64,000 nt of DNA, taken from contig JBFWJC010000001.1 in NCBI GenBank assembly GCA_050253415.1, positions 1,192,679 to 1,256,678 of the forward strand. The letters are read 5' to 3'. The DNA is from Pedobacter sp. (lineage in GTDB: Bacteria > Desulfobacterota > Desulfuromonadia > Desulfuromonadales > Syntrophotaleaceae). Both the position numbers and the translations under genes were made by a program. The notes below the pieces were generated by a model. The model had not been told where the DNA came from. It ran no database searches and saw only the letters and a list, made by a program, of their open reading frames with translations. Each line of letters opens with the position of its first letter. Position 1 is the first letter of the stretch. Positions 2,889 through 14,916 of the stretch are shown one piece after another.

Positions 2889-3116
2889 ATGAAACAACAG
2901 ATCTTGGAAATCCTTGATAAAATCCGCCCGTCTCTGCAGGCCGATGGTGGTGATGTGGAGTTGGTCGATGTCAGCGAAGACGGTGTCGTAAAAGTTCGAC
3001 TCAAAGGCGCCTGCAGTTCCTGCCCCATGTCCACCATGACTCTCAAAATGGGGATTGAGAGAACCCTGAAGGCGCAAGTGCCGGGAATCAAGGAAGTCAT
3101 ACGCGTAGAAGATTGA
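2889..3116 (+). CDS. NifU C-terminal/NfuA-like Fe-S carrier protein
   Basis: [15 protein letters not shown] and [18 protein letters not shown] (CxxC). GGAGG RBS. Confidence 0.92.
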
Positions 3117-3192: not shown

Positions 3193-3669
3193 ATGATGGA
3201 TACGCTTGAAGGGCAGCATGCTGCTGATTTTAATCTGGAAGGATCGGATAAACAACGCCACGCGTTAACCGATTATGCGGGCAGGACCGTGGTACTTTAT
3301 TTTTATCCCAAGGATAACACTCCCGGTTGCAGCAAGGAGGCGTGTTCCTTTCGCGATCTTCATACAGAGTACCAGCAGCAGGATGTCGTCTTGCTGGGCG
3401 TCAGCAAAGACAGCCTTGCGTCCCATGACCGATTTATCGAAAAGTTTGGTCTGCCCTTTGTTCTGTTGTCTGACCCTGACACCCAGATGATGAAGGCGTA
3501 TTCCGCTTTTGGAGAAAAGACCATGTACGGCAAAAAGGTCATGGGGACCATTCGTTCGACGGTGGTCATCGGCCCGGACGGTACGATTGTGAAGCATTGG
3601 CCGAAGGTCAAAAAGGCCGAAACCCATCCGCTTGAAGTTCTGGAATTTTTACGCAGCCGGCAAGCCTGA
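3193..3669 (+). CDS. bcp: Peroxiredoxin Q / bacterioferritin comigratory protein
   Basis: VVLYFYPKDNTPGCSKEACSFRD signature. Confidence 0.92.
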   Translation: MMDTLEGQHAADFNLEGSDKQRHALTDYAGRTVVLYFYPKDNTPGCSKEACSFRDLHTEYQQQDVVLLGVSKDSLASHDRFIEKFGLPFVLLSDPDTQMMKAYSAFGEKTMYGKKVMGTIRSTVVIGPDGTIVKHWPKVKKAETHPLEVLEFLRSRQA

Positions 3670-3890: not shown

Positions 3891-5153
3891 TTAAAACATA
3901 CAGGTCAGGCTGATGCCTATCAGGTGCAGGTAGTTTTCGTACTGCCCGTTGGCGGTGCTGCCGTACAGGTTGGTTGTTTTATCGCGATTTTCCTGCAGCT
4001 GGAAGCCGTAAGCCAGGGCCAGTTTGATGTTGTTAACGGACAGTTCGGCGCCGGCTGTGAAAAGGTGGGTGTCGGAGTCGGGGATTGCCGGTTCGAAGGT
4101 GTTGTCGGGGATGGGGTTCTGGCCGTAGAGATATCCGGCCATCACCGCCAGTTGCTTGTTGATATGGTATTTGGTGCCGATATTGTAGGCCCAGGTATCA
4201 TGCCAATTGCGCGGTGCCACGGTCACTGTCTCCCCTCCAACCGGCTCGTCCAGACTGATTTTCAGATATTGAAAAGATGACCAGTCCTCCCAACGCAGCC
4301 CCGCCTCGACCACCCATGCGGGAGAGATATGGTAGGCCAGACCGGCAGTGACCTGCTGGGGCAGGGTGATGGATGCCTGACCACCTGTGTTCTGGAAAAG
4401 GAAGGCCAGCGGCGCAGCGGTGTCGGGGATGTCGAACTGGGCGCGTCCGTCGATATCCACCTTGATTTCGCTGCGGTAGCCAGCGCCGAAGGATAAGGAG
4501 TCGGTCAGCTTGACCAGCAGGCCAACGTTGAATCCTACCCCTTCACTGTCACCGGCAAACTCCTGACCGATTTCCCCAAAGGGGCCCCCGTCAATTTTGT
4601 TTTTGAGCTTGGCATCCAGCAGCAGAATGTCCAACCCGGCCCCAATGGAAATGCGCGGCGAGACCCGATAGGCAAGGGTCGGATTAATATTAAAGGTGGT
4701 AATGCGGGACTTGGTGGCGATAAAACGGCCCTCCCAGTCGCTATCCCAGATGGTTCCCAAACCAAAAGGATTGTAGACTGCCAGTCCGGCGCTGAAGCGA
4801 TTATCGAATTGGTGGGTAAGGTAAAAGGTGCTGGGGAAGTACGCCGTATCGGCGTTGTCCCATGTCTCTCCAGAGATACTCGTGAAATCGCGAGAAGGCA
4901 ATACGGCGGTGGTGCCGATTTCAATCTGAGTGCCCGGCAGTTCGGTAAGTAGAGCCGGGTTGAAAAAGACAGCCGACGGGCCATCGGCATGGGCAGTGAC
5001 GGCATTGGCCTGGCCAAGCGCGTCCGCACCCTGGGTAAAGATACCAAAGCCAGAGGCGAAACCGGGCTGTATGCTTCCAATCATAAGACACGCCACAAGT
5101 ACCAGAATGTGGAAAGATCTCTTAAACATGATATTCATATAAATTGCCGCCAT
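3891..5153 (-). CDS. OmpP1/FadL/TodX family outer-membrane transporter for hydrophobic molecules
   Basis: Signal peptide followed by ASGFGIFTQGADALGQANA, FFNPA, YNPFGL, NINPTLAYR, PAIPDSD and a C-terminal Phe. The start could be a few codons downstream. Confidence 0.9.
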   Translation of the reverse strand: MAAIYMNIMFKRSFHILVLVACLMIGSIQPGFASGFGIFTQGADALGQANAVTAHADGPSAVFFNPALLTELPGTQIEIGTTAVLPSRDFTSISGETWDNADTAYFPSTFYLTHQFDNRFSAGLAVYNPFGLGTIWDSDWEGRFIATKSRITTFNINPTLAYRVSPRISIGAGLDILLLDAKLKNKIDGGPFGEIGQEFAGDSEGVGFNVGLLVKLTDSLSFGAGYRSEIKVDIDGRAQFDIPDTAAPLAFLFQNTGGQASITLPQQVTAGLAYHISPAWVVEAGLRWEDWSSFQYLKISLDEPVGGETVTVAPRNWHDTWAYNIGTKYHINKQLAVMAGYLYGQNPIPDNTFEPAIPDSDTHLFTAGAELSVNNIKLALAYGFQLQENRDKTTNLYGSTANGQYENYLHLIGISLTCMF

Positions 5154-5307
5154 CGTTAAAAATAGATAATAATAAGCATTTGGAGATGATCTTAAGATTG
5201 AAGTATGGCAATCTCCAAAGTCAAGAAACTATAGCGATGATCAACGCTCCATGTTGATTAATTTTTGTTTACACGAAAAGCTTTTGCGCTTCTTTGATGG
5301 AGTTATA

Positions 5308-6120
5308 ATGGGAATCAGCTCTTCTTATCTGATGGAAAATGACCAGGAAGCAAAGCGTCTCGATCTCAAAACCGATCAAGCTCGTCTGGAACAACAGGCC
5401 AGGTGGGCAGGGATTGGACCTGGAATGCGTGTAGCAGATGTTGGTTGCGGTAGCGGCAAGACCAGTTTTTTTCTGCATCAGCTTGTGCAAGCCGGAGGAG
5501 AGGTTCTGGGAATTGATGCTTCGACCGAGCGAATTGACCATGCACGCAACACGTATAAGGCAGATGGATTGAGTTTTACCCGTCGTGACTTTTATGCATC
5601 CATGGCAGATCTGGGGCAGTTCGATTTTATCTGGGTGCGTTTTGTTCTGGAATATCATCGACGCGATGCTGCGAAGATCGTGGAAAATCTGATGCAAATT
5701 CTAAAGCCTGGAGGAATCCTGTGTCTGATCGACCTGGATCATAACTGCCTTAATCACTATGGTATGCCCCCCCGGCTTGAAAAGGCTCTGTCGGAAATCA
5801 TGGATCTGCTGGAAGCCAAAGCCAATTTCGACCCCTTTATGGGGCGAAAACTTTACAGCTTCCTTTATGACCTTGGCTGTGAAGAGATCGATGTGCAGCT
5901 TGCCGCCCATCATCTTATAGCCGGCAAGCTTAATGATGTGGATGCCTATAACTGGCTGAGCAAAGTGGATGTCGCCGTCCAGAACAGTGGGTATGGCTTT
6001 CCGGAATATGGGGGGGAATATCTGGAATTTCGGGAAGAGTTTAAACGGTTTTTTGAAGATCCGCGGCGTTTTACCTATACCCCGTTAATTGCTTGCCGCG
6101 GTATTAAACCACGATGTTGA
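5308..6120 (+). CDS. Class I SAM-dependent methyltransferase
   Basis: VADVGCGSG (motif I), LGIDAS, FDFIWVRFVLEY, LKPGG. Start chosen at ATG 5308 after GGAG; the ORF is open from 5251. Confidence 0.88.
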   Translation: MGISSSYLMENDQEAKRLDLKTDQARLEQQARWAGIGPGMRVADVGCGSGKTSFFLHQLVQAGGEVLGIDASTERIDHARNTYKADGLSFTRRDFYASMADLGQFDFIWVRFVLEYHRRDAAKIVENLMQILKPGGILCLIDLDHNCLNHYGMPPRLEKALSEIMDLLEAKANFDPFMGRKLYSFLYDLGCEEIDVQLAAHHLIAGKLNDVDAYNWLSKVDVAVQNSGYGFPEYGGEYLEFREEFKRFFEDPRRFTYTPLIACRGIKPRC

Positions 6121-6177
6121 TTCTGCTCCCTCCTCCATAGGGCATGCCTTGTGGGGCGGGGGGGAACCACTTTAACC

Positions 6178-8493
6178 TCAGATGGTCAGGCCGGCCTCTG
6201 CGGTAGTACGGTGTACATGGGAGCTTATAAAGTGGGCTAACGCTCTGAGATGCTTTTGATCAAGATTCGTAAAGGCGATGCCGAAACCGGCCGGGAATAT
6301 AGTTTTTTTTGGTAAACATTGATGGTTAACCCACACGACCCGACCGCTGACTTCCATGGGGGTGGCACAATCATCGGGCAAATTGAACAGAAGCTTTAGC
6401 GTGTTCCCCTCTCGGATGGCAAGATCCGATGCGGCAAATATGCCGCGAACGCTGATGTCGGCCGAAGTGGCCTTCCAGCTTTTTCCTTGATAGTCGATGG
6501 TTACCTCCGTGGAACATGGAATTCGGACACTTGCACGCGAAGAGTGAACCTCTGATCGTTCCATGACTTCCAATTCGCAGACATGATCCCGTTCAAAATA
6601 ATTTAGAAACGCATTCACAATATCTGTGTCCAGGTGTTTTCCTTGTTCTTTGCGGAGTTCCTTGATCGCAACCTCGATGGGCATGGGGTCGCGGTAATGG
6701 CGTTTTGAGGTTATGGCCTCGAAGAAGTCAGCGACGGCTATAATCTTGGCTCCCAGGGGGATATCTTGGGCGGTCAGCCCCTTTGGATAGCCGCTGCCAT
6801 CAATTTTTTCATGATGCGCGCCAGCGATAGCTGGCACTTCCTTGTAAATCCCCTCAAAGTGAATGCCCTCTAGTATCGTTCGGGTCTGTTCCGCATGGGT
6901 TTTAACCATGGCGTATTCCATGGCCGACAGACGTCCCGGTTTTTTCAGGATAGCGTCGGGAACAGCGATCTTGCCGTAATCGTGCAACAGAGAGGCGACG
7001 CGGATTTTTTCACACTCATCATCGGAAAGGGCTAATTCTTGGCAAATTCCCGAGGTAAATTGGGTAACCCTTTCAGAGTGGCCGGCTGTCAGAGGGTCAC
7101 GGGCATCAATGGTCGCTGCAAGGGCATGCAGTGTCGAATTGAACTGTTGTTTGCGACTTTGAAGTAATTGGGCGTTCCGGATGCTGATGCCGATGATTGG
7201 GGCAATGCCACAAAGAAGGGTAAGGTCGCTTTTAAGCAAGGGGCGTTTGGTTGTAACGTTATCTACAGCCAAGATACCAATGGCTTCGTAGTCGTAGACA
7301 ATGGGGCAGCAAAGAAAGGATTTGACGCCCATTTTTTTTGCAAACTCAAGGCTTCGAGGTGAAAGGTCTTCTTGTATATCGTTGATATTGTTAATCAGGA
7401 TGGGTCTTTTCTCCCTGAAGGAGACAACAAACGCACCTTTTGAGTCGGGATTGTCCAAATGAAAAAGGGTGTTTTTCAGCAGGCCTTCCATCTTTTTTGA
7501 ATAACCATACCCACCTTCAAAAGACAGATAGGTTTTCTCCGGGTTGGCCAATAAAACGAAACCCCTGTCAAAGTCGAGGCTCTTTTGAAAGTTTTCTATA
7601 AGACTTTGAAGGATGTCGTTTATGGTGATTTCTTTACTGATGCTTTGAGAAATAGCATTGGTTAGCAATGCGTTATTATAGTTGTTTTCAATCTGGTCAA
7701 GAAGCGTTCCGGAAGAAAGTCTCAGCGATTCCATGCTGGTCCAGGCGGTTTTCTTTTCCTTTTTTTCCAGAACGATCCAGGAAATAAGGAAAGCGAGGAG
7801 CCCACCATAGGCGAAGAGGTGGAGGTGCTCAAATGTTTTTGAAAAGAACTGTGCCAGGAAAAAAGCGCCGCTGAAGATCAGGGAAGTACTTCTGAATGTT
7901 TTTAATAATACGAACTCGTCCGGATTCCAGGAAATGACGTACCGGCAGCACTGTCCTTGGCGAAAGATACACTCTGTGTGCTCGATCTCCGGGAATTTAT
8001 GGCGAAACAGGTAGGAGATCGCCTCAAAAAAACCGATGCGATTTTGGCACTGGAATTCACGCTCCTGTACACCGGGATACGGTGTGACGATAATTTCTAT
8101 TTTGTGCTTATCAAGTCGTCGCGACTCGTATTTTGCTGAACGCGTAAAATTGGAGGCCGCCTTGCCTATCCATTCATATACCCTGTGAGGCCCCAAAAAA
8201 CCCAACACGTATTGATGTATGACGGTATTGGCTTCAGGAGATGCGGCATAGCGTCCCGCTTCTCTGGCAATGTTTTTATTATCTGTCAGTTCGCCAATTT
8301 TGTCGAAAAAGGCATTGACCTGTTCTTGGGTAAACCAGTGCCACTGATCTGCAACTTCGTACGATTGCATGTTGGCATGCGATAAAAGTTCAGAGATGTT
8401 GATTTTTGGATAATGGTTTTTAAGGAGACGCAGATAGGGATCGATGATTCGGCTATTATATAGATGTTTTTTCGAAAGGTCTTCAGACTTCAT
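6178..8493 (-). CDS. Membrane-anchored HD-GYP c-di-GMP phosphodiesterase (V4R-like sensor, 2 TM, GAF, HD-GYP, PilZ), paralogue 1
   Basis: TAGHSERV, LLHDYGK, HHEKIDGSGYPKGL, VADFFEA. GAF segment SFLCCPI..IGILAVDN. PilZ motifs RASVR and DISVRG. Two hydrophobic helices around residues 205-242. Confidence 0.88.
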   Translation of the reverse strand: MKSEDLSKKHLYNSRIIDPYLRLLKNHYPKINISELLSHANMQSYEVADQWHWFTQEQVNAFFDKIGELTDNKNIAREAGRYAASPEANTVIHQYVLGFLGPHRVYEWIGKAASNFTRSAKYESRRLDKHKIEIIVTPYPGVQEREFQCQNRIGFFEAISYLFRHKFPEIEHTECIFRQGQCCRYVISWNPDEFVLLKTFRSTSLIFSGAFFLAQFFSKTFEHLHLFAYGGLLAFLISWIVLEKKEKKTAWTSMESLRLSSGTLLDQIENNYNNALLTNAISQSISKEITINDILQSLIENFQKSLDFDRGFVLLANPEKTYLSFEGGYGYSKKMEGLLKNTLFHLDNPDSKGAFVVSFREKRPILINNINDIQEDLSPRSLEFAKKMGVKSFLCCPIVYDYEAIGILAVDNVTTKRPLLKSDLTLLCGIAPIIGISIRNAQLLQSRKQQFNSTLHALAATIDARDPLTAGHSERVTQFTSGICQELALSDDECEKIRVASLLHDYGKIAVPDAILKKPGRLSAMEYAMVKTHAEQTRTILEGIHFEGIYKEVPAIAGAHHEKIDGSGYPKGLTAQDIPLGAKIIAVADFFEAITSKRHYRDPMPIEVAIKELRKEQGKHLDTDIVNAFLNYFERDHVCELEVMERSEVHSSRASVRIPCSTEVTIDYQGKSWKATSADISVRGIFAASDLAIREGNTLKLLFNLPDDCATPMEVSGRVVWVNHQCLPKKTIFPAGFGIAFTNLDQKHLRALAHFISSHVHRTTAEAGLTI

Positions 8494-8528
8494 TTGTAAC
8501 TCTTCGAATGGGGTTTGTTCATCTACGA

Positions 8529-10562
8529 TTATTGCCGATTAAACCGGGTTGTGGATCTCATCTGCCGTAGACCTTGGTCCGAATGTTTGGTTTTAAAAAT
8601 CCAAAGACAATAAAGCTTTTCATAAAATAGTTGATTATCATCAGCATATTTGACGGGAAAAATCAGTTTTGGAATGTTGCCGTGAGGACTTTTCCCGGCT
8701 ATCAAAGTGATAGCACAATTGAGAGTTTTAATTGGAGTATTCTCGTCGAGTACGAAAACTTTCAGACTGTTTGTTAGTTCAGAAAGGTTTATAGCAAGGT
8801 CTGATATGTTAAGTATCAAAATTGCCTTTAACTGTCCATTCATTTTCAGTGAAAAGATTTCGCGCTCTTTTTTAATGTTAATTCTTTTATATTCAGAGCC
8901 GAGATTATCCTGTTCCAAAGACTCTGACTCCAAATCCAGCGCACTGATTAGTAATCCGCCAGATAGGCTTTCATAGTAAGCTGCAAAGTCAAGCATATCC
9001 TCCTTGGATGCTTTCTTTAATTCCCAAGGCCCCGTCAGGTCCCAATCGCAAGTTTCAGTTATGTCCTGGTGGTAATAAGCAAAAGTATCAATTGAGCAAC
9101 TTTTGGGATCGTTGAGTTCTTCAGTTACGCCGCCAAAGACACGTTTTGGAAAACGATTTTCGGGGCGGAAATAACAAATTACATAATCCATATGCATGGA
9201 ATAAATGCTGTGTGAATCGTTGATAAAACTTCCTATTTGGTTAAGTACGGCTATGCCCGCCTTGCGGCCTTTGGTTCCTTTGGCGGCATGATGGTGTATC
9301 ATCCACGCTTTTTCATAAAAACGTAGTGTTGAAATATGACCAAGAATAGCACCTTTGTCTCTATAGATGAAATGGCGGGCAATGTTGGGGTTTTCAGTGT
9401 AAAGGGTTTGATAGACCTGCTTTGCCCTTTCTTTGTTCTCTTGCAGGTGCTTGTATTTCTGTGGGTATATAAATCCCGATTCAAAAAAGAAATGCCAAAG
9501 CTCGTCCATGTCTACGGTGTCACAAATGTATGCATTAGGGTCACAGGCATTTTGTAACAGCCCCAGAAGTTGCACGTGTTCGTTGACGGGCATGTCGAGA
9601 AAAACAATTCCGCACCGGCAGTTTTCTTTGTTGTCTTCCTCGAAAGTGGTCCGATGAATAATCTGGCCGTCAAAGGTCAATTGGAAGTTGTTGGTAAAGC
9701 GAAGTTTGACGTTTTTAAGGAACATGCCAGGCAGCAGTACCGGGTTGCTGCGATCCTCCTCGACCGATAAACCTGAGCCGGAGATATTGACAACCTTTAG
9801 ATTTACAAGCTTTTTGGTCAGAGGATGCGAGAACACAATGCTGGGAAGAGGTAATAGCTCCTGTCGAGTGCTCCGCGACTTTTTCGCCCTGAAGCGTTTG
9901 GTATTGTCCGTAGTCGGGCAGAGAACGAACTCCCTGTTTTGTTTGGCGATGCTTTCACGAACGATTTTGCATTCTCCGCAAAAGATTGTCTGGTGACCGT
10001 CCTGGAAAAGTATGTTGACGGGAAGTTCTGAATTTAACCACTGGTAGGATTGGGGTGGTTCCAGTGCAATTTGTACGCAAAAGGACAAGGCGTTGAAGTC
10101 GGTCAGCTTACCTTGAAAAAGCGCACTGTTTTGTATCAGGGATACGCGGATGTCCGGACACCGATAGCGTTCTAATTTTCGGAGTCCGATTCTCGTGCAG
10201 GATTCCGGTAAATCGACCCTGATCCCCATGCCATTGTATTCAACGTGTGTGGCGGAAACTAGAAGTGAATCTCGTCCCATCGGTACGATAATGTTCTGAA
10301 GTTCAAACGATGAAAGGTTTGAAGGAATAGCGTCAGGGTCTTGCCATACGCAGTCCAGTTCCTTGCCGGAGCAGGGTAAAGGTGAGGCGTTGAGGGCAAT
10401 CGTACGATCAAAATGCTTATGTCGGAAATTGACGATTATATGCTTGTTTTGAAAGTTTAAATAATTTAGCCGATTGATAAGGATATCTCTGGCTATTTGT
10501 TTTTGCTGCTCCGTTTGGACAGGGGAGACAGCTAACTCAGAGCCGTTAATCATAGCTTCCAC
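8529..10562 (-). CDS. Tandem-PilZ domain protein with a C-terminal putative GNAT-like domain
   Basis: RKLER..DFNALS and RSTR..NISGSG are PilZ-like motif pairs. The C-terminal ~330 aa (GHISTLRFY..WMIHHHAA..YVICYFRPEN) has an acyltransferase-like pattern. The ORF is clear; the GNAT call is inference. Confidence 0.65.
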   Translation of the reverse strand: MEAMINGSELAVSPVQTEQQKQIARDILINRLNYLNFQNKHIIVNFRHKHFDRTIALNASPLPCSGKELDCVWQDPDAIPSNLSSFELQNIIVPMGRDSLLVSATHVEYNGMGIRVDLPESCTRIGLRKLERYRCPDIRVSLIQNSALFQGKLTDFNALSFCVQIALEPPQSYQWLNSELPVNILFQDGHQTIFCGECKIVRESIAKQNREFVLCPTTDNTKRFRAKKSRSTRQELLPLPSIVFSHPLTKKLVNLKVVNISGSGLSVEEDRSNPVLLPGMFLKNVKLRFTNNFQLTFDGQIIHRTTFEEDNKENCRCGIVFLDMPVNEHVQLLGLLQNACDPNAYICDTVDMDELWHFFFESGFIYPQKYKHLQENKERAKQVYQTLYTENPNIARHFIYRDKGAILGHISTLRFYEKAWMIHHHAAKGTKGRKAGIAVLNQIGSFINDSHSIYSMHMDYVICYFRPENRFPKRVFGGVTEELNDPKSCSIDTFAYYHQDITETCDWDLTGPWELKKASKEDMLDFAAYYESLSGGLLISALDLESESLEQDNLGSEYKRINIKKEREIFSLKMNGQLKAILILNISDLAINLSELTNSLKVFVLDENTPIKTLNCAITLIAGKSPHGNIPKLIFPVKYADDNQLFYEKLYCLWIFKTKHSDQGLRQMRSTTRFNRQ

Positions 10563-10604
10563 ATTACACCTGCAGTTTCAGTTGTTGCAAATCATTAAAG
10601 ATGT

Positions 10605-12887
10605 TCAGGCATGGACCCGATCAGGAAAGCTGCGGGTAAAGTTCTGTACTGCATCGCTGGCTTGCCGATGGAGGCCAACGAACTCAACGCCGAATCCGGA
10701 AGGGAAGGCAAGTTTGCGGGGCAAGGACGGGTGGTTTACCCAGGCGACTCGCCCTCCCGCTTCTATGATATTGCTGGGGCTGTTGGGGAGAAAAAAGGAG
10801 AGTTTTATCGGGGTACCTTCGCTGATTGCGGTATTGCTTGCGACAAAAATGCCCCCGGCACTTATGTCTGTACTTGTCCCGAAAATTGAGTGGCCCTGGT
10901 TTTCAAAAACGACCGGTGTACGGCAAGGTACGCGCACGATTTCGCGTTTTATCGCAGGCGCCTGACGCAACATGCGTTCGTAATCTTCGGGATATGTCTT
11001 TTTGAAATAACTTAAAAAGGCTTTTACGATTTTTCCGTCAAAGTGGGAGAAAGCTTCCTGTTTCAACACCTTGTAGGCGATATTCAGGGGCATGGGTTCC
11101 CGGTAGTGGCGTTGAGCCGTAATGGCTTCAAAAAAGTCCGCAACGGCAATGATTTTTGAACCGATAGGGATTTCTGCGTCTGTCAGCCCCTTTGGATAAC
11201 CACTGCCGTCGATTTTTTCATGGTGCGCTCCGGCAACGACCGGAACGCGTTTGTAGATACCTTCAAAGTTGATCTGTTTCAGGATGCTATGACTTTGTTG
11301 AGCGTGGGTTTTGACAATATCGTATTCTTCAACCGTCAACCTGCCGGCTTTTTTGAGGATGGCGTCGGGGACAGCAATCTTTCCATAGTCGTGCAAAAGC
11401 GCAGCGACTCGGACCATCTCACAATAATCTTCGGACAAGTTCAGTTCCCTGCAGATACCCAGAGAATATTCCGTAACTTTTTCGGAATGGCCGGCTGTCA
11501 GGGGATCTCTCGCGTCGATGGTGGCTGCCAAAACATGCAAGGTGGAGTTAAACTGACGCTTGCGCGATGCCAGCAACTGCGCGTTGCGGATGCTCACCCC
11601 GATAACGCTGGCAAGACCGCTGAGTAAGTTCAGATCGCTTTGCGTCAGCGGGCGATGCGTATGGGTATGATCGACAGTCAGCACGCCAAGCGCCTTGCCA
11701 TCACACAGGATCGGACAGCAAATGACCGCACGGCAACCTGTTTTTCGTAGAAAATTAAGGCTGTAGTCAGGCAGGTTTCCCTGTGGTTCATCGATATCGT
11801 TGATGAGAAAAGGTTTCATTTCCCGGAAAACAATGGTGAAGATGTCTTCCGTTGGGCGTGTGCTCAGGGGGAACAGGGTGTTTTTAAGAAGTAGTTTTAC
11901 GCGGGGAGGAAGCCCAAAACCGACACGAAAATTCAGTCGGGTTTTGTCCGCATCCGCGAGCAGAATCAGGCCTCTGTCAAAATCAAGACGTTTTTCAAAT
12001 GTTTGCGAGACACTTTGAAGAATATCTTCGATCGTCGTTTTGCTGCTGATAGCCTGCGAAATCTCATTGGTAAGCAAGGCATTGTTGTAGTTTCTGCTTA
12101 TTTGATCAACCATCTCTTCGGAAGCGTTGCGCATGTGCAAAAGGCTTTTGGAGAGATGTTTTTTTTGAAGATGATCGGTAATCATCGATATCCCGAAAAA
12201 AAATCCTGCAGACACCGGTAGTGTCGCCTGTAAGGCAATCTGCGGGTCAAAAAAACAGGTGATCGCTGGCGCAGTCAGGGCAGCAACGCCCGATAACTTA
12301 CGGACTTTTTGAAAGGTTTGACAGAGGGATGGTTTCCAGTTGATCAGGTAGAGGCAGTATTCATGCTGACGGTTGACACATTCAGGATGGTCAATGCGTG
12401 GTATCTCCAGGTCGAAGACGGTCACAATCGCTTCGAATATCCCTTTGCGAAATTGACATTGGCCAGAATTTTCCGTGATACCTGGAAGCGTTTTGACTTT
12501 TATTTCTATTTGGCTCGGACCGAGTTGTCTGCATTCAATGGTGCAGGAATGCACAAGGTTGGCCATGGTTTGTTTCAGGTTTTTAAATGCATTGGCGGGG
12601 GATGCAAAACCTAGGATGTATTGGCGGATGAGCCCATTAGTTTCAGGAGCGGCGGCAAAACGTCCTGCCTCTCGCGCAATTTGGGGGTCGCCAGTTTCCT
12701 TCGTGATGTTTTCGTAAAAAGAATCAAATTTTTGTTGCGTGAACCAGTAGTGGGGATCCGCTACTTCGTGGGGCTGGATGTTTGATTTTTTTAATAAAGA
12801 GTCGATCTTGATATGATCATACTTCTGGCGGAGAAGTTTGAGGTAAATATTGAATATTTTGCTGTTGTATAGAGGCTCGCCGCTCAT
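10605..12887 (-). CDS. Membrane-anchored HD-GYP c-di-GMP phosphodiesterase (V4R-like sensor, 2 TM, GAF, HD-GYP, PilZ), paralogue 2
   Basis: Same architecture as 6178-8493: TAGHSEKV, LLHDYGK, HHEKIDGSGYPKGL; PilZ motifs REIVR and DISAGG. Confidence 0.88.
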   Translation of the reverse strand: MSGEPLYNSKIFNIYLKLLRQKYDHIKIDSLLKKSNIQPHEVADPHYWFTQQKFDSFYENITKETGDPQIAREAGRFAAAPETNGLIRQYILGFASPANAFKNLKQTMANLVHSCTIECRQLGPSQIEIKVKTLPGITENSGQCQFRKGIFEAIVTVFDLEIPRIDHPECVNRQHEYCLYLINWKPSLCQTFQKVRKLSGVAALTAPAITCFFDPQIALQATLPVSAGFFFGISMITDHLQKKHLSKSLLHMRNASEEMVDQISRNYNNALLTNEISQAISSKTTIEDILQSVSQTFEKRLDFDRGLILLADADKTRLNFRVGFGLPPRVKLLLKNTLFPLSTRPTEDIFTIVFREMKPFLINDIDEPQGNLPDYSLNFLRKTGCRAVICCPILCDGKALGVLTVDHTHTHRPLTQSDLNLLSGLASVIGVSIRNAQLLASRKRQFNSTLHVLAATIDARDPLTAGHSEKVTEYSLGICRELNLSEDYCEMVRVAALLHDYGKIAVPDAILKKAGRLTVEEYDIVKTHAQQSHSILKQINFEGIYKRVPVVAGAHHEKIDGSGYPKGLTDAEIPIGSKIIAVADFFEAITAQRHYREPMPLNIAYKVLKQEAFSHFDGKIVKAFLSYFKKTYPEDYERMLRQAPAIKREIVRVPCRTPVVFENQGHSIFGTSTDISAGGIFVASNTAISEGTPIKLSFFLPNSPSNIIEAGGRVAWVNHPSLPRKLAFPSGFGVEFVGLHRQASDAVQNFTRSFPDRVHA

Positions 12888-13387
12888 ATGACCTTAGCCC
12901 TTACCTTAGCCTTTATAGTGCTTTGAGTCTTGAAGAAAAATGTTGGTAATCGAATTCGGTATTTAAGACAGGTAAATTTTGTGCCAGAGTTTCTGTTTCC
13001 AAAACAGGCCGGAATAGAAATCTTTCACTTATCATACACTTCGCTGCGATTTTTGCAATTTATTCATTGTTGGTCAAGGCAATATATTGCTGATGTAAAA
13101 AGTTGGGGCCTGAATGGTTAGATGGTTCCATATAGGCATGCCCAATCTTTGTGGTGCGAGATTGGATGGGTGGGGTAACGGTCTGGATGTGTGTTGTTAA
13201 AAGAGTTCCGCCATAAACTCTTTTTGGCAAACTCAAATGAACATATTCCGGAGTACGGTACGATGGTTGGGAAACGCTTGATTGTACGGATTGCTACTAG
13301 TACAAATGGGAAAATGGCTTTGGTGTTGTCTGGTCTAACCACCCAGTACAGCAGTCAAGGTAGACGAAAAGTGGAAAATAAAATTGA

Positions 13388-14698
13388 CTATTCCGGACAG
13401 TTGTCGGGTTTACGTCGATTTTCAAATTCCTGCATACGTTTTTCGTAGCCTCTTTCAGATGAGTAATAAAAACGTTGCCCGCGCAAAGACTCGGGAAGGT
13501 AGTCCTGAGCGACCCAAGCCTCCGGATAGTCGTGTGGATAACGGTATCCGTCCCCGTAGCCGATATCTTTCATCAGGCGGGTCGGTGCGTTGCGCAGGTG
13601 GGCAGGTACAGGCAGAGCCCCGCTTTGACGTACTGTCGCCAAGGCCCGGTCGATGGCGAGGTAGGCCGCATTGCTTTTGGGGGCGCATGCCAGGTAGGTA
13701 GCCGCTTGAGCAAGCGGGATCCGGCCTTCGGGCATGCCGATGAAATGCACTGCCTGTTGCGTCGCAACTGCCAGTTGCAGTCCGCGGGGGTCTGCATTGC
13801 CGACATCCTCCGCAGCAAAAATAACCATACGTCGAGCGATGAATAGGGGATCTTCTCCCGCTTCTATCATGCGGGCCAGCCAATACAGGGCTGCGTCAGG
13901 GTCGGATCCCCGGAGGCTTTTTATGAAGGCTGAAATGACGTTGTAATGTTCTTCGGCGCCTTTGTCGTAGCGCACTCCTCGCTGTTGCAACGCATCTTTG
14001 ATTGCCTGCAAATTGATGACAGATTGTCCTTTACTTAAATCGGCCGCCACTTCCAAGGCGTTCAAGGCAATGCGGGCATCGCCCTGGGCTTGTTCTGCGA
14101 GAAAGGCCAGGGCCTCCCTGTCTGTTTCGGGGAAAGTTCCGGACAAGCCACGGGTATCGGTCAGGGCTCGCTCCAGCAAATGTTCAATGTCAGGCGTTTC
14201 CAATGGGTGCAGTACAAATACGCGTGAGCGGGACAGCAAGGCAGAGTTTACTTCAAACGAAGGGTTTTCGGTGGTGGCACCGATAAGGGTGATATCACCT
14301 TTTTCCACATAGGGTAGGAATGCGTCCTGCTGGGCCTTGTTGAAGCGGTGTATTTCATCCACGAAGAGCAGAGTCTTGCGATCGTGGTAAGCACGTTCTT
14401 CTCGAGCTTTCTGAACGATTTCCCGGATTTCCTTGATGCCCTGAAGTACGGCCGAAAAGAACACGAAGCGGCTTCGGGTGGCCCCTGCTATGACCTGGGC
14501 CAGGGTGGTCTTGCCCGTTCCCGGCGGGCCCCAAAAAATAACAGAAGAGAGGCGGTCGGTTTCAATCAGGCGGCGCAACACCTTGTCTTTGCCAATCAGG
14601 TGCTGCTGTCCGACCATTTCTTCCAGGGTTCTGGGACGCATACGTTCAGCCATGGGAGCCTGCGCATTTACATGCATGTCGTTTTCAAAAAGATCCAC
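13388..14698 (-). CDS. rarA: Replication-associated recombination protein A (MgsA)
   Basis: PMAERMRP, Walker A GPPGTGKT, DEIHRFNKAQQD, GATTENPSF, SAFIKSLRGSDPDAA. GTG start at 14698 after AAGGA is inferred. Confidence 0.93.
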   Translation of the reverse strand: MDLFENDMHVNAQAPMAERMRPRTLEEMVGQQHLIGKDKVLRRLIETDRLSSVIFWGPPGTGKTTLAQVIAGATRSRFVFFSAVLQGIKEIREIVQKAREERAYHDRKTLLFVDEIHRFNKAQQDAFLPYVEKGDITLIGATTENPSFEVNSALLSRSRVFVLHPLETPDIEHLLERALTDTRGLSGTFPETDREALAFLAEQAQGDARIALNALEVAADLSKGQSVINLQAIKDALQQRGVRYDKGAEEHYNVISAFIKSLRGSDPDAALYWLARMIEAGEDPLFIARRMVIFAAEDVGNADPRGLQLAVATQQAVHFIGMPEGRIPLAQAATYLACAPKSNAAYLAIDRALATVRQSGALPVPAHLRNAPTRLMKDIGYGDGYRYPHDYPEAWVAQDYLPESLRGQRFYYSSERGYEKRMQEFENRRKPDNCPE

Positions 14699-14916
14699 CT
14701 GTTTTGATCCTTGCTGCGAAAAAGAAATTTTGACTGCCTGTCTTTTCGGATGAATAGCAGGCTGAAGTATTTTCGTCATGCGGGAAACTCGAATGTAGCA
14801 TACATGTGATATCCCCCACAACTGTCAAAGAAGGGCTAAGTTCTTGAAAGTGATGGACTTTGCTCGAAGGGCTATGTTAGTTTTGCTCCTGGCTATCCAG
14901 GTGGAGAATGTGTGAC

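Follow-up and report, generated by a model that had tools for sequence, protein, structure and literature searches.

The stretch considered here, referred to as the window, is 64,000 nucleotides of DNA from Pedobacter sp. (GTDB lineage Desulfobacterota; Desulfuromonadia; Desulfuromonadales; Syntrophotaleaceae; assembly GCA_050253415.1, contig JBFWJC010000001.1, positions 1,192,679-1,256,678 of the forward strand). Between bcp and rarA it holds genes for a FadL-type channel and a class I S-adenosylmethionine (SAM) methyltransferase (hereafter MT), followed on the minus strand by genes for an HD-GYP protein, a 677-residue protein (hereafter PilZX) and a second HD-GYP protein. The locus represents one instance of a signalling and enzyme module that is conserved among anaerobic sediment bacteria of the Desulfobacterota. 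In it, PilZX, the sensor domain of the HD-GYP proteins and one MT family keep together, both as neighbouring genes and at the level of genome content, irrespective of the output to which the sensor is joined. The genes are the following:

3193-3669, bcp (AhpC-TSA), flanking the locus.
3891-5153, minus strand, FadL/TodX-family outer-membrane channel (Toluene_X, 6e-70), with a signal peptide and a C-terminal Phe.
5308-6120, plus strand, class I SAM methyltransferase (MT), in an open reading frame that opens at 5251; divergent from FadL and convergent with HD-GYP paralogue 2.
6178-8493, minus strand, HD-GYP paralogue 2, 771 residues: H-NOX-like sensor, membrane hairpin, GAF, HD-GYP and PilZ.
8529-10562, minus strand, PilZX, 677 residues, starting at GTG 10562 or ATG 10553: predicted module of the type of cyclic di-GMP (c-di-GMP) receptors plus a tandem GNAT fold.
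10605-12887, minus strand, HD-GYP paralogue 1, 760 residues, with the architecture of paralogue 2.
13388-14821, rarA/MgsA, flanking the locus on the other side.

The original prediction had described five genes between bcp and rarA, with a tight minus-strand trio whose middle gene is AT-richer, and this is borne out by the open reading frame coordinates and Pfam, the gaps within the trio being 42 and 35 bp. The PilZX gene has a GC content of 0.435, and its 3' half, which encodes the GNAT part, one of 0.399, against 0.53 for the window, whose lowest-GC 2-kb stretch contains it. In 24 of the 26 other loci described below, the PilZX homologue is also AT-richer than the remainder of its own locus. 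Low GC is therefore a trait of the PilZX family, not peculiar to this locus and not the mark of a recent transfer here, and recent horizontal transfer was ruled out as its cause.

Besides the window, 26 loci from 24 genomes were compared by tblastn and Pfam. Six of them were found by peptide patterns (three in close relatives, at 82-93% identity) and 20 are 20-kb stretches around genome matches to PilZX. A sensor-domain protein adjoins PilZX in 19 of the 26, and its output is HD-GYP, with or without a PilZ tail, in 14 loci, PAS-HD-GYP in one and a PAS-HisKA-HATPase-REC hybrid kinase in three, the gene being broken in the last. The MT orthologue lies within the locus in 15 of the 26 and is better conserved (48-62% identical) than PilZX (28-44%). 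A FadL orthologue (45-57% identical) is found in seven, namely in the three close relatives, in three further genomes of the window's class and in one genome from a different family; FadL is an accessory part of the module, limited to certain lineages. Two loci (L038 and L041) preserve the window's arrangement of convergent and divergent genes at about 40% identity, a third (L039) shows its mirror image, and in L049 a single strand carries the genes for sensor, MT, PilZX and FadL. Six loci, namely L044-L046 (directly after ftsQ-ftsA-ftsZ), L048, L055 and L057, hold PilZX with no sensor, MT or FadL. The recurrent linkage that had been anticipated is present in these counts, as is the occurrence of the same sensor domain on other outputs, both hybrid histidine kinases and PAS-HD-GYP. 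Since the sensor remains paired with PilZX whichever output it carries, PilZX and MT seem to be tied to the sensing end and not to c-di-GMP hydrolysis as such.

Some of these neighbourhoods have features of their own. In locus L047 (G394:C1, about 7500-8950), the sensor gene beside an intact PilZX is broken, with three TGA, two TAG and one TAA codons within the match, and no MT of the module was found in this single-contig genome. In L044-L046 (about 5300-12400, family f36), PilZX stands right after ftsQ-ftsA-ftsZ, and these genomes still carry sensor and MT elsewhere, about 14 kb apart in G312 and G360. In L004 (8190-10792), genes for an EAL-CBS-GGDEF protein and for a small GNAT protein of a single domain come after MT, and a radical-SAM/SPASM gene lies upstream of PilZX.

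Genome content was surveyed in one sample of 401 genomes of the phylum, searched for PilZX, the sensor and MT. The cut-offs for a strong match (E <= 1e-80, <= 1e-50 and <= 1e-100, respectively) were chosen after the gaps in the E-values had been seen, and, as relatives are not independent, counts are given without P-values. PilZX occurs in 45 genomes at E <= 1e-20, of which 38 are strong and the other seven weak, all of family f50. The sensor domain is found in 62 genomes at <= 1e-10, and 33 of its 40 strong genomes are among the 38 with PilZX; for MT, the corresponding figures are 36 genomes at <= 1e-40 and 27 of 28 strong ones. All three parts are held by 27 of the 401 genomes, from 12 families, and MT is strong in only one of the 363 genomes that have no strong match to PilZX (G188). 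In that genome (locus L062, G188:C13, 5727-8727), the MT gene directly follows one for a 5TM-LYT-PAS-GGDEF diguanylate cyclase. Of the five PilZX genomes in which the sensor is missing, completeness is 86% in two, and PilZX lies on 4-kb contigs in two others.

These counts bear on the simplest alternative, namely that the five genes are unrelated neighbours and PilZX is merely a c-di-GMP effector lying between two phosphodiesterases. The six loci in which PilZX has no partner would suit it, as would the scans of the locus for promoter-like sites (14 found, 12.2 expected) and terminator-like sites (11 found, 11.9 expected), both of which stay at the level of shuffled sequence. However, it is contradicted by the genome and locus counts, given that gene order is kept at 30-45% protein identity over 12 families, that the genes co-occur in genomes even where they are unlinked, that MT is so rare in genomes with no strong PilZX, and that a divergent form of the trio exists in family f50 (see below). 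We consider this alternative highly improbable.

PilZX itself is predicted to combine a PilZN-PilZ-PilZ module of the c-di-GMP-receptor type with a tandem GNAT acyltransferase fold, in the following parts:

9909-10505, minus strand, YcgR/VCA0042-like pair of a PilZN-like barrel (residues 20-126) and a first PilZ domain, PilZ-1 (residues 128-218), from VIA-align and motifs.
9531-9896, minus strand, PilZ-2 (residues 223-344), from Pfam PilZ, fold match and motifs.
8532-9530, minus strand, tandem GNAT fold (residues 345-677), from Foldseek and VIA-align.

An AlphaFold model built from the alignment of 28 family members reached a predicted local distance difference test score (pLDDT) of 80.6 and a predicted template-modelling score (pTM) of 0.68. 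In VIA-align, residues 19-218 of the model superpose on the two-domain VCA0042/YcgR type (Z 10.3-10.4), and residues 227-344 on PilZ-c-di-GMP complexes of Alg44, MrkH and P. aeruginosa PilZ (Z 12.1-12.8). For residues 338-662, the top tandem-GNAT match is 9emp, a histidine acetyltransferase crystallised with N-myristoyl-histidine and coenzyme A (CoA), with Z 13.3 and 264 residues aligned over residues 338-660 of PilZX. It is followed by VipF (Z 12.0; Foldseek E 6e-10), MAB_4324 (Z 11.6), N-myristoyltransferases (NMT; Z 10.2-10.4) and the protein acetyltransferases PatZ and S. lividans PAT (Z 10.2-10.3), and Foldseek adds the clavulanate tandem GNAT and the glucosamine N-acetyltransferase GlmA.

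Much of this architecture escapes family models. Pfam sees a single PilZ domain (PF07238) in PilZX (residues 242-336, 26.0 bits against a cut-off of 22.5), which is matched by 24 of the 28 aligned members, and no Acetyltransf_* or other acyltransferase model of Pfam matches any of the 28 at E <= 1. NCBIfam assigns no family to PilZX, residues 345-677 have none in either Pfam or NCBIfam, and Atlas gives only weak leads for the GNAT part, to Acetyltransf_1 and Acetyltransf_9 (scores 0.84-0.85). The motifs agree with it only in part. In PilZ-1, R128 is present in 27 of 28 members and R132 in all 28 (RxxxR), followed by D155x[S/N]xxS160. In PilZ-2, D259xS261xxG264 is invariant or nearly so (D/N at 259) across the 28, and R230xxR233 stands, one residue short, where RxxxR is expected. 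The first GNAT lobe carries an invariant HHHAA (423-427) and then R433-K-A-G436-I-A438, and the GNAT fold also shows a signature YFRPENxFP (464-472). In GNAT proteins, the motif for the pyrophosphate of acyl-CoA is Q/RxxGxG/A after strand 4.

The terms 'tandem PilZ' and 'GNAT-like', which had been applied to this protein from the DNA alone, are thus supported by the AlphaFold model, the fold searches and the motifs R128xxxR132 and D259xSxxG264. As for the further suggestion of a signal synthase of the LuxI/FeeM type, the GNAT fold stands, but the best matches are tandem-GNAT N-acyltransferases (histidine acetyltransferase, VipF and NMT). The LuxI and FeeM families gave no Pfam match at E <= 1 in the 28 members and are not among the fold-search matches listed; a distant relation to them may exist.

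The PilZX family is large: 930 matches were obtained at 90% clustering among 8000 candidates scored, and there are 982 clusters at 50% identity with E <= 0.001, of which 325 have E <= 1e-30. Nearly all members have about 680 residues and are nameless or labelled 'PilZ domain-containing'. A few homologues (among them P0128 and P0139, with 1209 and 1220 residues) are fused at the N-terminus to NERD and a Ser/Thr-type protein kinase domain. In P0208 (865 residues), the PilZX part is joined, after its residue 523, to a GAF domain, perhaps through an artefact of assembly or gene calling. Stand-alone short forms of the GNAT half were also sought; the 43 unnamed proteins found are probably fragments, because they lie mostly on contigs of 1-3 kb.

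In family f50, a divergent trio lies side by side in loci L058 (G045:C1:314000-333000; 6206-14623) and L060 (G241:C4; 3336-12075). Here, an MT (E 1e-42 to 1e-51) is accompanied by a hybrid histidine kinase of H-NOX-like type with about 1020 residues, by a radical-SAM or B12-radical-SAM enzyme and by a multi-PilZ protein of 950-967 residues. Over PilZ-2 and the GNAT lobes (PilZX residues 244-608, E 8e-25), the multi-PilZ protein shares 21% identity with PilZX, and it keeps the signature in the form YFR-x-EN-x-FP. B12-radical-SAM genes stand beside the module in five loci altogether (L047 4655-6109, L050 7123-8526, L060 7304-8650, L055 7335-8972 and L058 10070-11677), and those of L047, L050 and L060 are mutually orthologous, with 35-64% identity. 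As a fixed fifth part of the module, the B12-radical-SAM gene was ruled out for the window genome, where only homologues of 27-32% identity exist and these are located elsewhere.

The two HD-GYP proteins share 50% identity along their full length, both score GAF, HD_5 and PilZ in Pfam, and their domains are placed as follows:

7909-8466, minus strand, sensor domain of paralogue 2 (about residues 10-195), aligned with paralogue 1, on which its fold is modelled.
6622-7119, minus strand, HD-GYP catalytic domain of paralogue 2 (Pfam HD_5 1.9e-42; HD, HHE and GYP intact).
6226-6537, minus strand, C-terminal PilZ of paralogue 2 (Pfam PilZ 1e-12; RxxxR, DxSxxG).
12318-12875, minus strand, sensor domain of paralogue 1 (residues 5-190), with C144, H167, C170 and C178.
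11028-11534, minus strand, HD-GYP catalytic domain of paralogue 1 (Pfam HD_5 1.2e-40; motifs intact).
10635-10949, minus strand, C-terminal PilZ of paralogue 1 (Pfam PilZ 1.9e-11; RxxxR, DxSxxG).

The HD_5 matches reach 145 and 140 bits, and LLHDYGK and GAHHEKIDGSGYP are present in both paralogues; judged by the HD/HHE/GYP motif set, as discussed in the accessible part of a survey of HD-GYP proteins (bioRxiv 10.1101/2021.11.05.467447), both catalytic domains are intact. The C-terminal PilZ tails score 44.6 and 48.7 bits and contain DISVRG and DISAGG, with RxxxR in both. Paralogue 2 is the orthologue of the single sensor gene of most other loci, to whose sensors it is closer in tblastn identity than paralogue 1 is. 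Paralogue 1 is a lineage-specific extra copy: among the 26 loci, L001-L003, those of the close relatives, are the only ones that have it upstream of PilZX.

The N-terminal domain of these proteins was examined in an alignment of 17 N-termini, from the window and other loci, in which 21 positions are invariant, among them C144, H167, C170 and C178 (17 of 17). A model built for the domain of paralogue 1 (pLDDT 82.5) has a complete H-NOX fold. In VIA-align, it matches the H-NOX proteins of Nostoc (Z 16.3, 176 residues aligned, root-mean-square deviation 3.0) and Shewanella (Z 16.1, 178 residues aligned, root-mean-square deviation 2.8), and Foldseek gives target-normalised template-modelling scores of 0.74-0.79. 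Lower matches include the ligand-binding domain of the AraC regulator VirS (Z 13.2), BcsD, a V4R protein (Z 9.1), the palmitate-bearing TRAPP protein Bet3 (Z 8.8) and the phenol sensors PoxR and DmpR (Z 8.4-8.6). The relatives of the fold (H-NOX, VirS, V4R/DmpR and Bet3) bind hydrophobic ligands. Moreover, the alignment profile finds Shewanella H-NOX 4u9b weakly (E 0.12), and H-x2-C-x7-C, which we take to be the zinc site of H-NOX proteins, aligns with it residue for residue.

The determinants of haem binding in H-NOX proteins are the proximal haem-ligating His and the propionate motif YxSxR. No proximal His is conserved in the 17 sensors, which keep His only at position 47 (15 of 17) and at H167 (17 of 17), and YxSxR is absent from 16 of the 17, the sole match lying at a non-homologous place. 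Binding of haem and sensing of nitric oxide (NO) or O2 are therefore unlikely, and the reading of the domain as a haem or NO sensor was rejected. In Pfam, HNOB (PF07700) matches one of the 17 sensors, at 14.1 bits against a cut-off of 25.5, and Arabinose_bd and V4R give weak matches in 11 and 4 of the 17 (best E 4.1e-05 and 0.0046), the Arabinose_bd match of the window paralogue remaining, at 21.1 bits, below the cut-off of 27.6. Two hydrophobic segments of 19 residues follow the sensor domain in 15 of the 17 sequences, and each window copy has only one segment over the threshold. The sensor would thus form an H-NOX-like pocket without haem on the cytoplasmic side, anchored to the inner membrane face by a helical hairpin, and would feed the GAF and HD-GYP domains.

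For MT, the Met at 5308 is favoured as the start because the N-terminus is conserved. In Pfam, MT matches the generic models Methyltransf_11/25/31, and weakly PCMT and CheR. Over its whole length, it matches among solved chains only 3mgg and juvenile-hormone acid O-methyltransferases (E 5e-14), the latter being its only such matches among characterised solved enzymes; these form methyl esters at the carboxyl group of a lipophilic acid. The FadL gene belongs to the OMPP1/FadL/TodX family (Pfam Toluene_X, 236 bits against a cut-off of 29.7) and does not reach the cut-off of the FadL equivalog NF007988 (121 bits against 585), and no substrate is assigned to it.

We put at roughly 45% the probability that the module works as a c-di-GMP-switched acyltransferase (PilZX) and a methyltransferase that make or modify a lipophilic ligand read by the H-NOX-like sensor. 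In this scheme, a hydrophobic small molecule would be read by the H-NOX-like pocket at the inner membrane face, and the ligand-bound sensor would set HD-GYP activity and, hence, the c-di-GMP level. Through its PilZ domains, PilZX would be switched by c-di-GMP, and it could acylate a small acceptor such as an amino acid or an amine from acyl-CoA or acyl carrier protein (acyl-ACP), MT could cap the acylated product, for example as a methyl ester, and, in the lineage of the window, FadL may pass the lipophilic compound across the outer membrane. If PilZX and MT make or modify the ligand of the sensor and HD-GYP lowers c-di-GMP, the feedback loop would be closed, and the PilZ tails of the two HD-GYPs may add substrate-level feedback on c-di-GMP hydrolysis. 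The chemistry, that is, a self-made acyl or methyl-ester signal, is what we infer from folds and neighbours, and the same holds for the PilZ-based feedback and for the analogy with PhcB discussed below. We lean towards a small molecule, which is favoured by four leads: the link to FadL, the B12-radical-SAM genes in five loci, the top tandem-GNAT match of PilZX, which is an amino-acid N-acyltransferase with bound myristoylated product, and the matches of MT to juvenile-hormone acid enzymes. In the acyl-signal circuit that the original prediction had drawn, the co-conservation of PilZX, sensor and MT is upheld, whereas FadL, with seven of 26 loci, drops out as a regular part.

The main rival takes PilZX for a c-di-GMP-gated protein acyl- or acetyltransferase that, together with MT, modifies a protein covalently and gives no diffusible signal. 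Such an enzyme has been proposed for PixB and would resemble the lysine acetylases regulated by cAMP. The most economical target would be the conserved sensing part of the neighbouring receptor, in an adaptation like that exerted by CheR and CheB on chemoreceptors, and the linkage to the sensor regardless of its output would be equally well explained if both enzymes act on it. PixB (MXAN_2604) of Myxococcus xanthus, with the order PilZ-PilZ-GNAT, binds c-di-GMP in vitro, requires its transferase domain for function and is likened by its authors to cyclic AMP (cAMP)-regulated, cAMP-dependent acetyltransferases, as stated in the portions of the paper available (PMC8316039), and this too would suit a protein substrate. 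In the same portions, both PilZ domains of PixB have RxxxR, both lack the Ser of the second motif, and conservation is limited to close Cystobacterineae (PMC8316039). Compared by domain order only, PilZX resembles PixB in having two PilZ domains ahead of a domain of acyltransferase fold; it differs from PixB, as far as the latter is described there, in that PixB has a single GNAT domain recognisable by Pfam, whereas PilZX has an extra PilZN-like barrel, a tandem GNAT invisible to Pfam, and ties to an H-NOX-like sensor and an MT. The protein acetyltransferases among the fold matches (VipF at Z 12.0, PatZ and S. lividans PAT at Z 10.2-10.3) and the weak PCMT and CheR matches of MT point in the same direction as PixB. 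However, the PCMT and CheR similarity is that of the generic class I core, the highest-scoring tandem-GNAT matches are small-molecule or N-terminal acyltransferases, and the FadL and B12-radical-SAM neighbours are left unexplained. Modification of a protein by PilZX and MT seems to us rather unlikely.

A second rival is suggested by the channel and by the fold of the sensor. The module could serve to sense and handle a hydrophobic compound from outside the cell (a fatty acid, a hydrocarbon or an aromatic, for example), which would enter through FadL/TodX, be read by the sensor and be converted or detoxified by PilZX and MT, with neither a self-made signal nor a quorum function. FadL/TodX channels are known to import hydrophobic compounds and the Pfam family of the window protein is Toluene_X, the sensor fold is related to those of PoxR and DmpR (Z 8.4-8.6), and near-identical DNA occurs in landfill, sediment, aquatic and shale-gas metagenomes. 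Nevertheless, FadL is present in only seven of the 26 loci, no catabolic genes recur in the neighbourhoods of the 26, and a catabolic or detoxifying role leaves the two PilZ domains on the enzyme unexplained; we hold this explanation to be distinctly unlikely.

Several observations weigh against the scheme of a c-di-GMP-switched acyltransferase and an MT acting on the ligand of the sensor. In PilZX, PilZ-2 has RxxR for RxxxR and PilZ-1 has a Ser in place of the final Gly, which makes binding of c-di-GMP by PilZX less than certain. Of the acyl-CoA motif, only a part is kept, with G436 conserved in at least 90% of members and R433 not conserved. Where the output is a kinase, the locus by itself does not close the c-di-GMP loop. 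FadL is missing from 19 of the 26 loci, and channels of this type mostly serve import. MT is lacking in 11 of the 38 PilZX genomes, at least three of which (G180, G210 and G236) are well assembled, and the sensor in five of the 38; a number of these assemblies are incomplete. Mycobacterial cAMP-regulated lysine acetylases, which are like PilZX in architecture, point to protein substrates, and PixB possibly does so too.

A more ambitious form of the same scheme would make the module a complete new system of cell-cell or membrane-state signalling in anaerobic Desulfobacterota, with PilZX as synthase and a carboxyl MT yielding a lipophilic molecule of N-acyl or methyl-ester type, a haem-less H-NOX receptor, readout by c-di-GMP hydrolysis or phosphorelay, and FadL as conduit. 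We regard it as doubtful in this full form; if true, its receptor would be the first of H-NOX fold to read a lipid-like signal.

Each part of the module falls into a known superfamily (PilZ, GNAT, the H-NOX fold, HD-GYP or FadL). For two of the three domains that define it, no curated model exists, and none of the literature found describes the combination. No published description of PilZX, sensor and MT together was recovered by literature searches, whose coverage excludes subscription journals. H-NOX sensors control c-di-GMP enzymes in Shewanella, Legionella and Vibrio. The sensor of the window resembles H-NOX proteins (4u99, 6mx5 and 3tf0) in the whole fold (Z 16, about 177 residues aligned), in H-x2-C-x7-C and in an output on c-di-GMP turnover, but has no proximal His and no YxSxR and stays below Pfam HNOB; moreover, it is fused in cis to hairpin, GAF and HD-GYP and does not stand alone as a partner protein. 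In the RpfF/RpfC/RpfG system of the diffusible signal factor (DSF) of Xanthomonas, a lipophilic acyl-derived signal is read out through the HD-GYP protein RpfG, and in Ralstonia the SAM methyltransferase PhcB makes a methyl-ester signal, a 3-OH fatty-acid methyl ester (PhcB/PhcS). Unlike the DSF system, the module of the window has no RpfF-type crotonase and no REC-HD-GYP protein, and its H-NOX-like sensing is in the same polypeptide.

Other comparisons are more distant. HfsK reportedly has no PilZ domains and acts on holdfast polysaccharide. In Caulobacter crescentus, this N-acetyltransferase-family effector binds c-di-GMP and takes part in holdfast cohesion, according to the available part of its description (PMC5362036). 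It resembles PilZX in being an enzyme of acyltransferase fold under direct c-di-GMP control and differs from it, to the extent described there, in having no sensor or MT partners. N-acyl alanine methyl esters (NAMEs) of Roseovarius tolerans are stated, in the accessible portions of two reports, not to be part of N-acyl homoserine lactone (AHL) signalling (PMC11580390, PMC4582587); their producer is an alphaproteobacterium, and their link to the module is pure analogy. In the available part of the HD-GYP survey, PilZ appears only for an inactive HD-GYP fused to PilZN-PilZ, and H-NOX-type sensors go unmentioned (bioRxiv 10.1101/2021.11.05.467447).

Among sediment bacteria that reduce sulfate or metals, the PilZX family is common, with matches in 45 of the 401 genomes surveyed and 982 clusters at 50% identity. 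To our knowledge, c-di-GMP effectors that are enzymes are rare, and PixB, the substrate of which is unknown, is the only PilZ-GNAT protein that has been studied. Through the module, this class of enzymes gains a fixed genomic context, with a dedicated MT, a receptor domain and sometimes a lipid channel, and the search for substrate and ligand is therefore narrower. In addition, a large branch of haem-less, H-NOX-fold domains fused to HD-GYP or kinase outputs would extend what H-NOX-type domains may sense.

Two minor observations concern the DNA of the window. An Rfam scan at E <= 1 returned two rows at chance level and no riboswitch, and at 3038-3061 (minus strand) a CRISPR direct-repeat model matches below threshold (26.6 bits against a gathering value of 37, E 0.48), probably by chance. 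No RNA run is among the listed holders of the DNA of 5200-13000, which, at a level of at least half of the sampled words, is found nearly identical in metagenomes from landfill (possibly the source sample), from sediment in two studies, and from aquatic and shale-gas sites.

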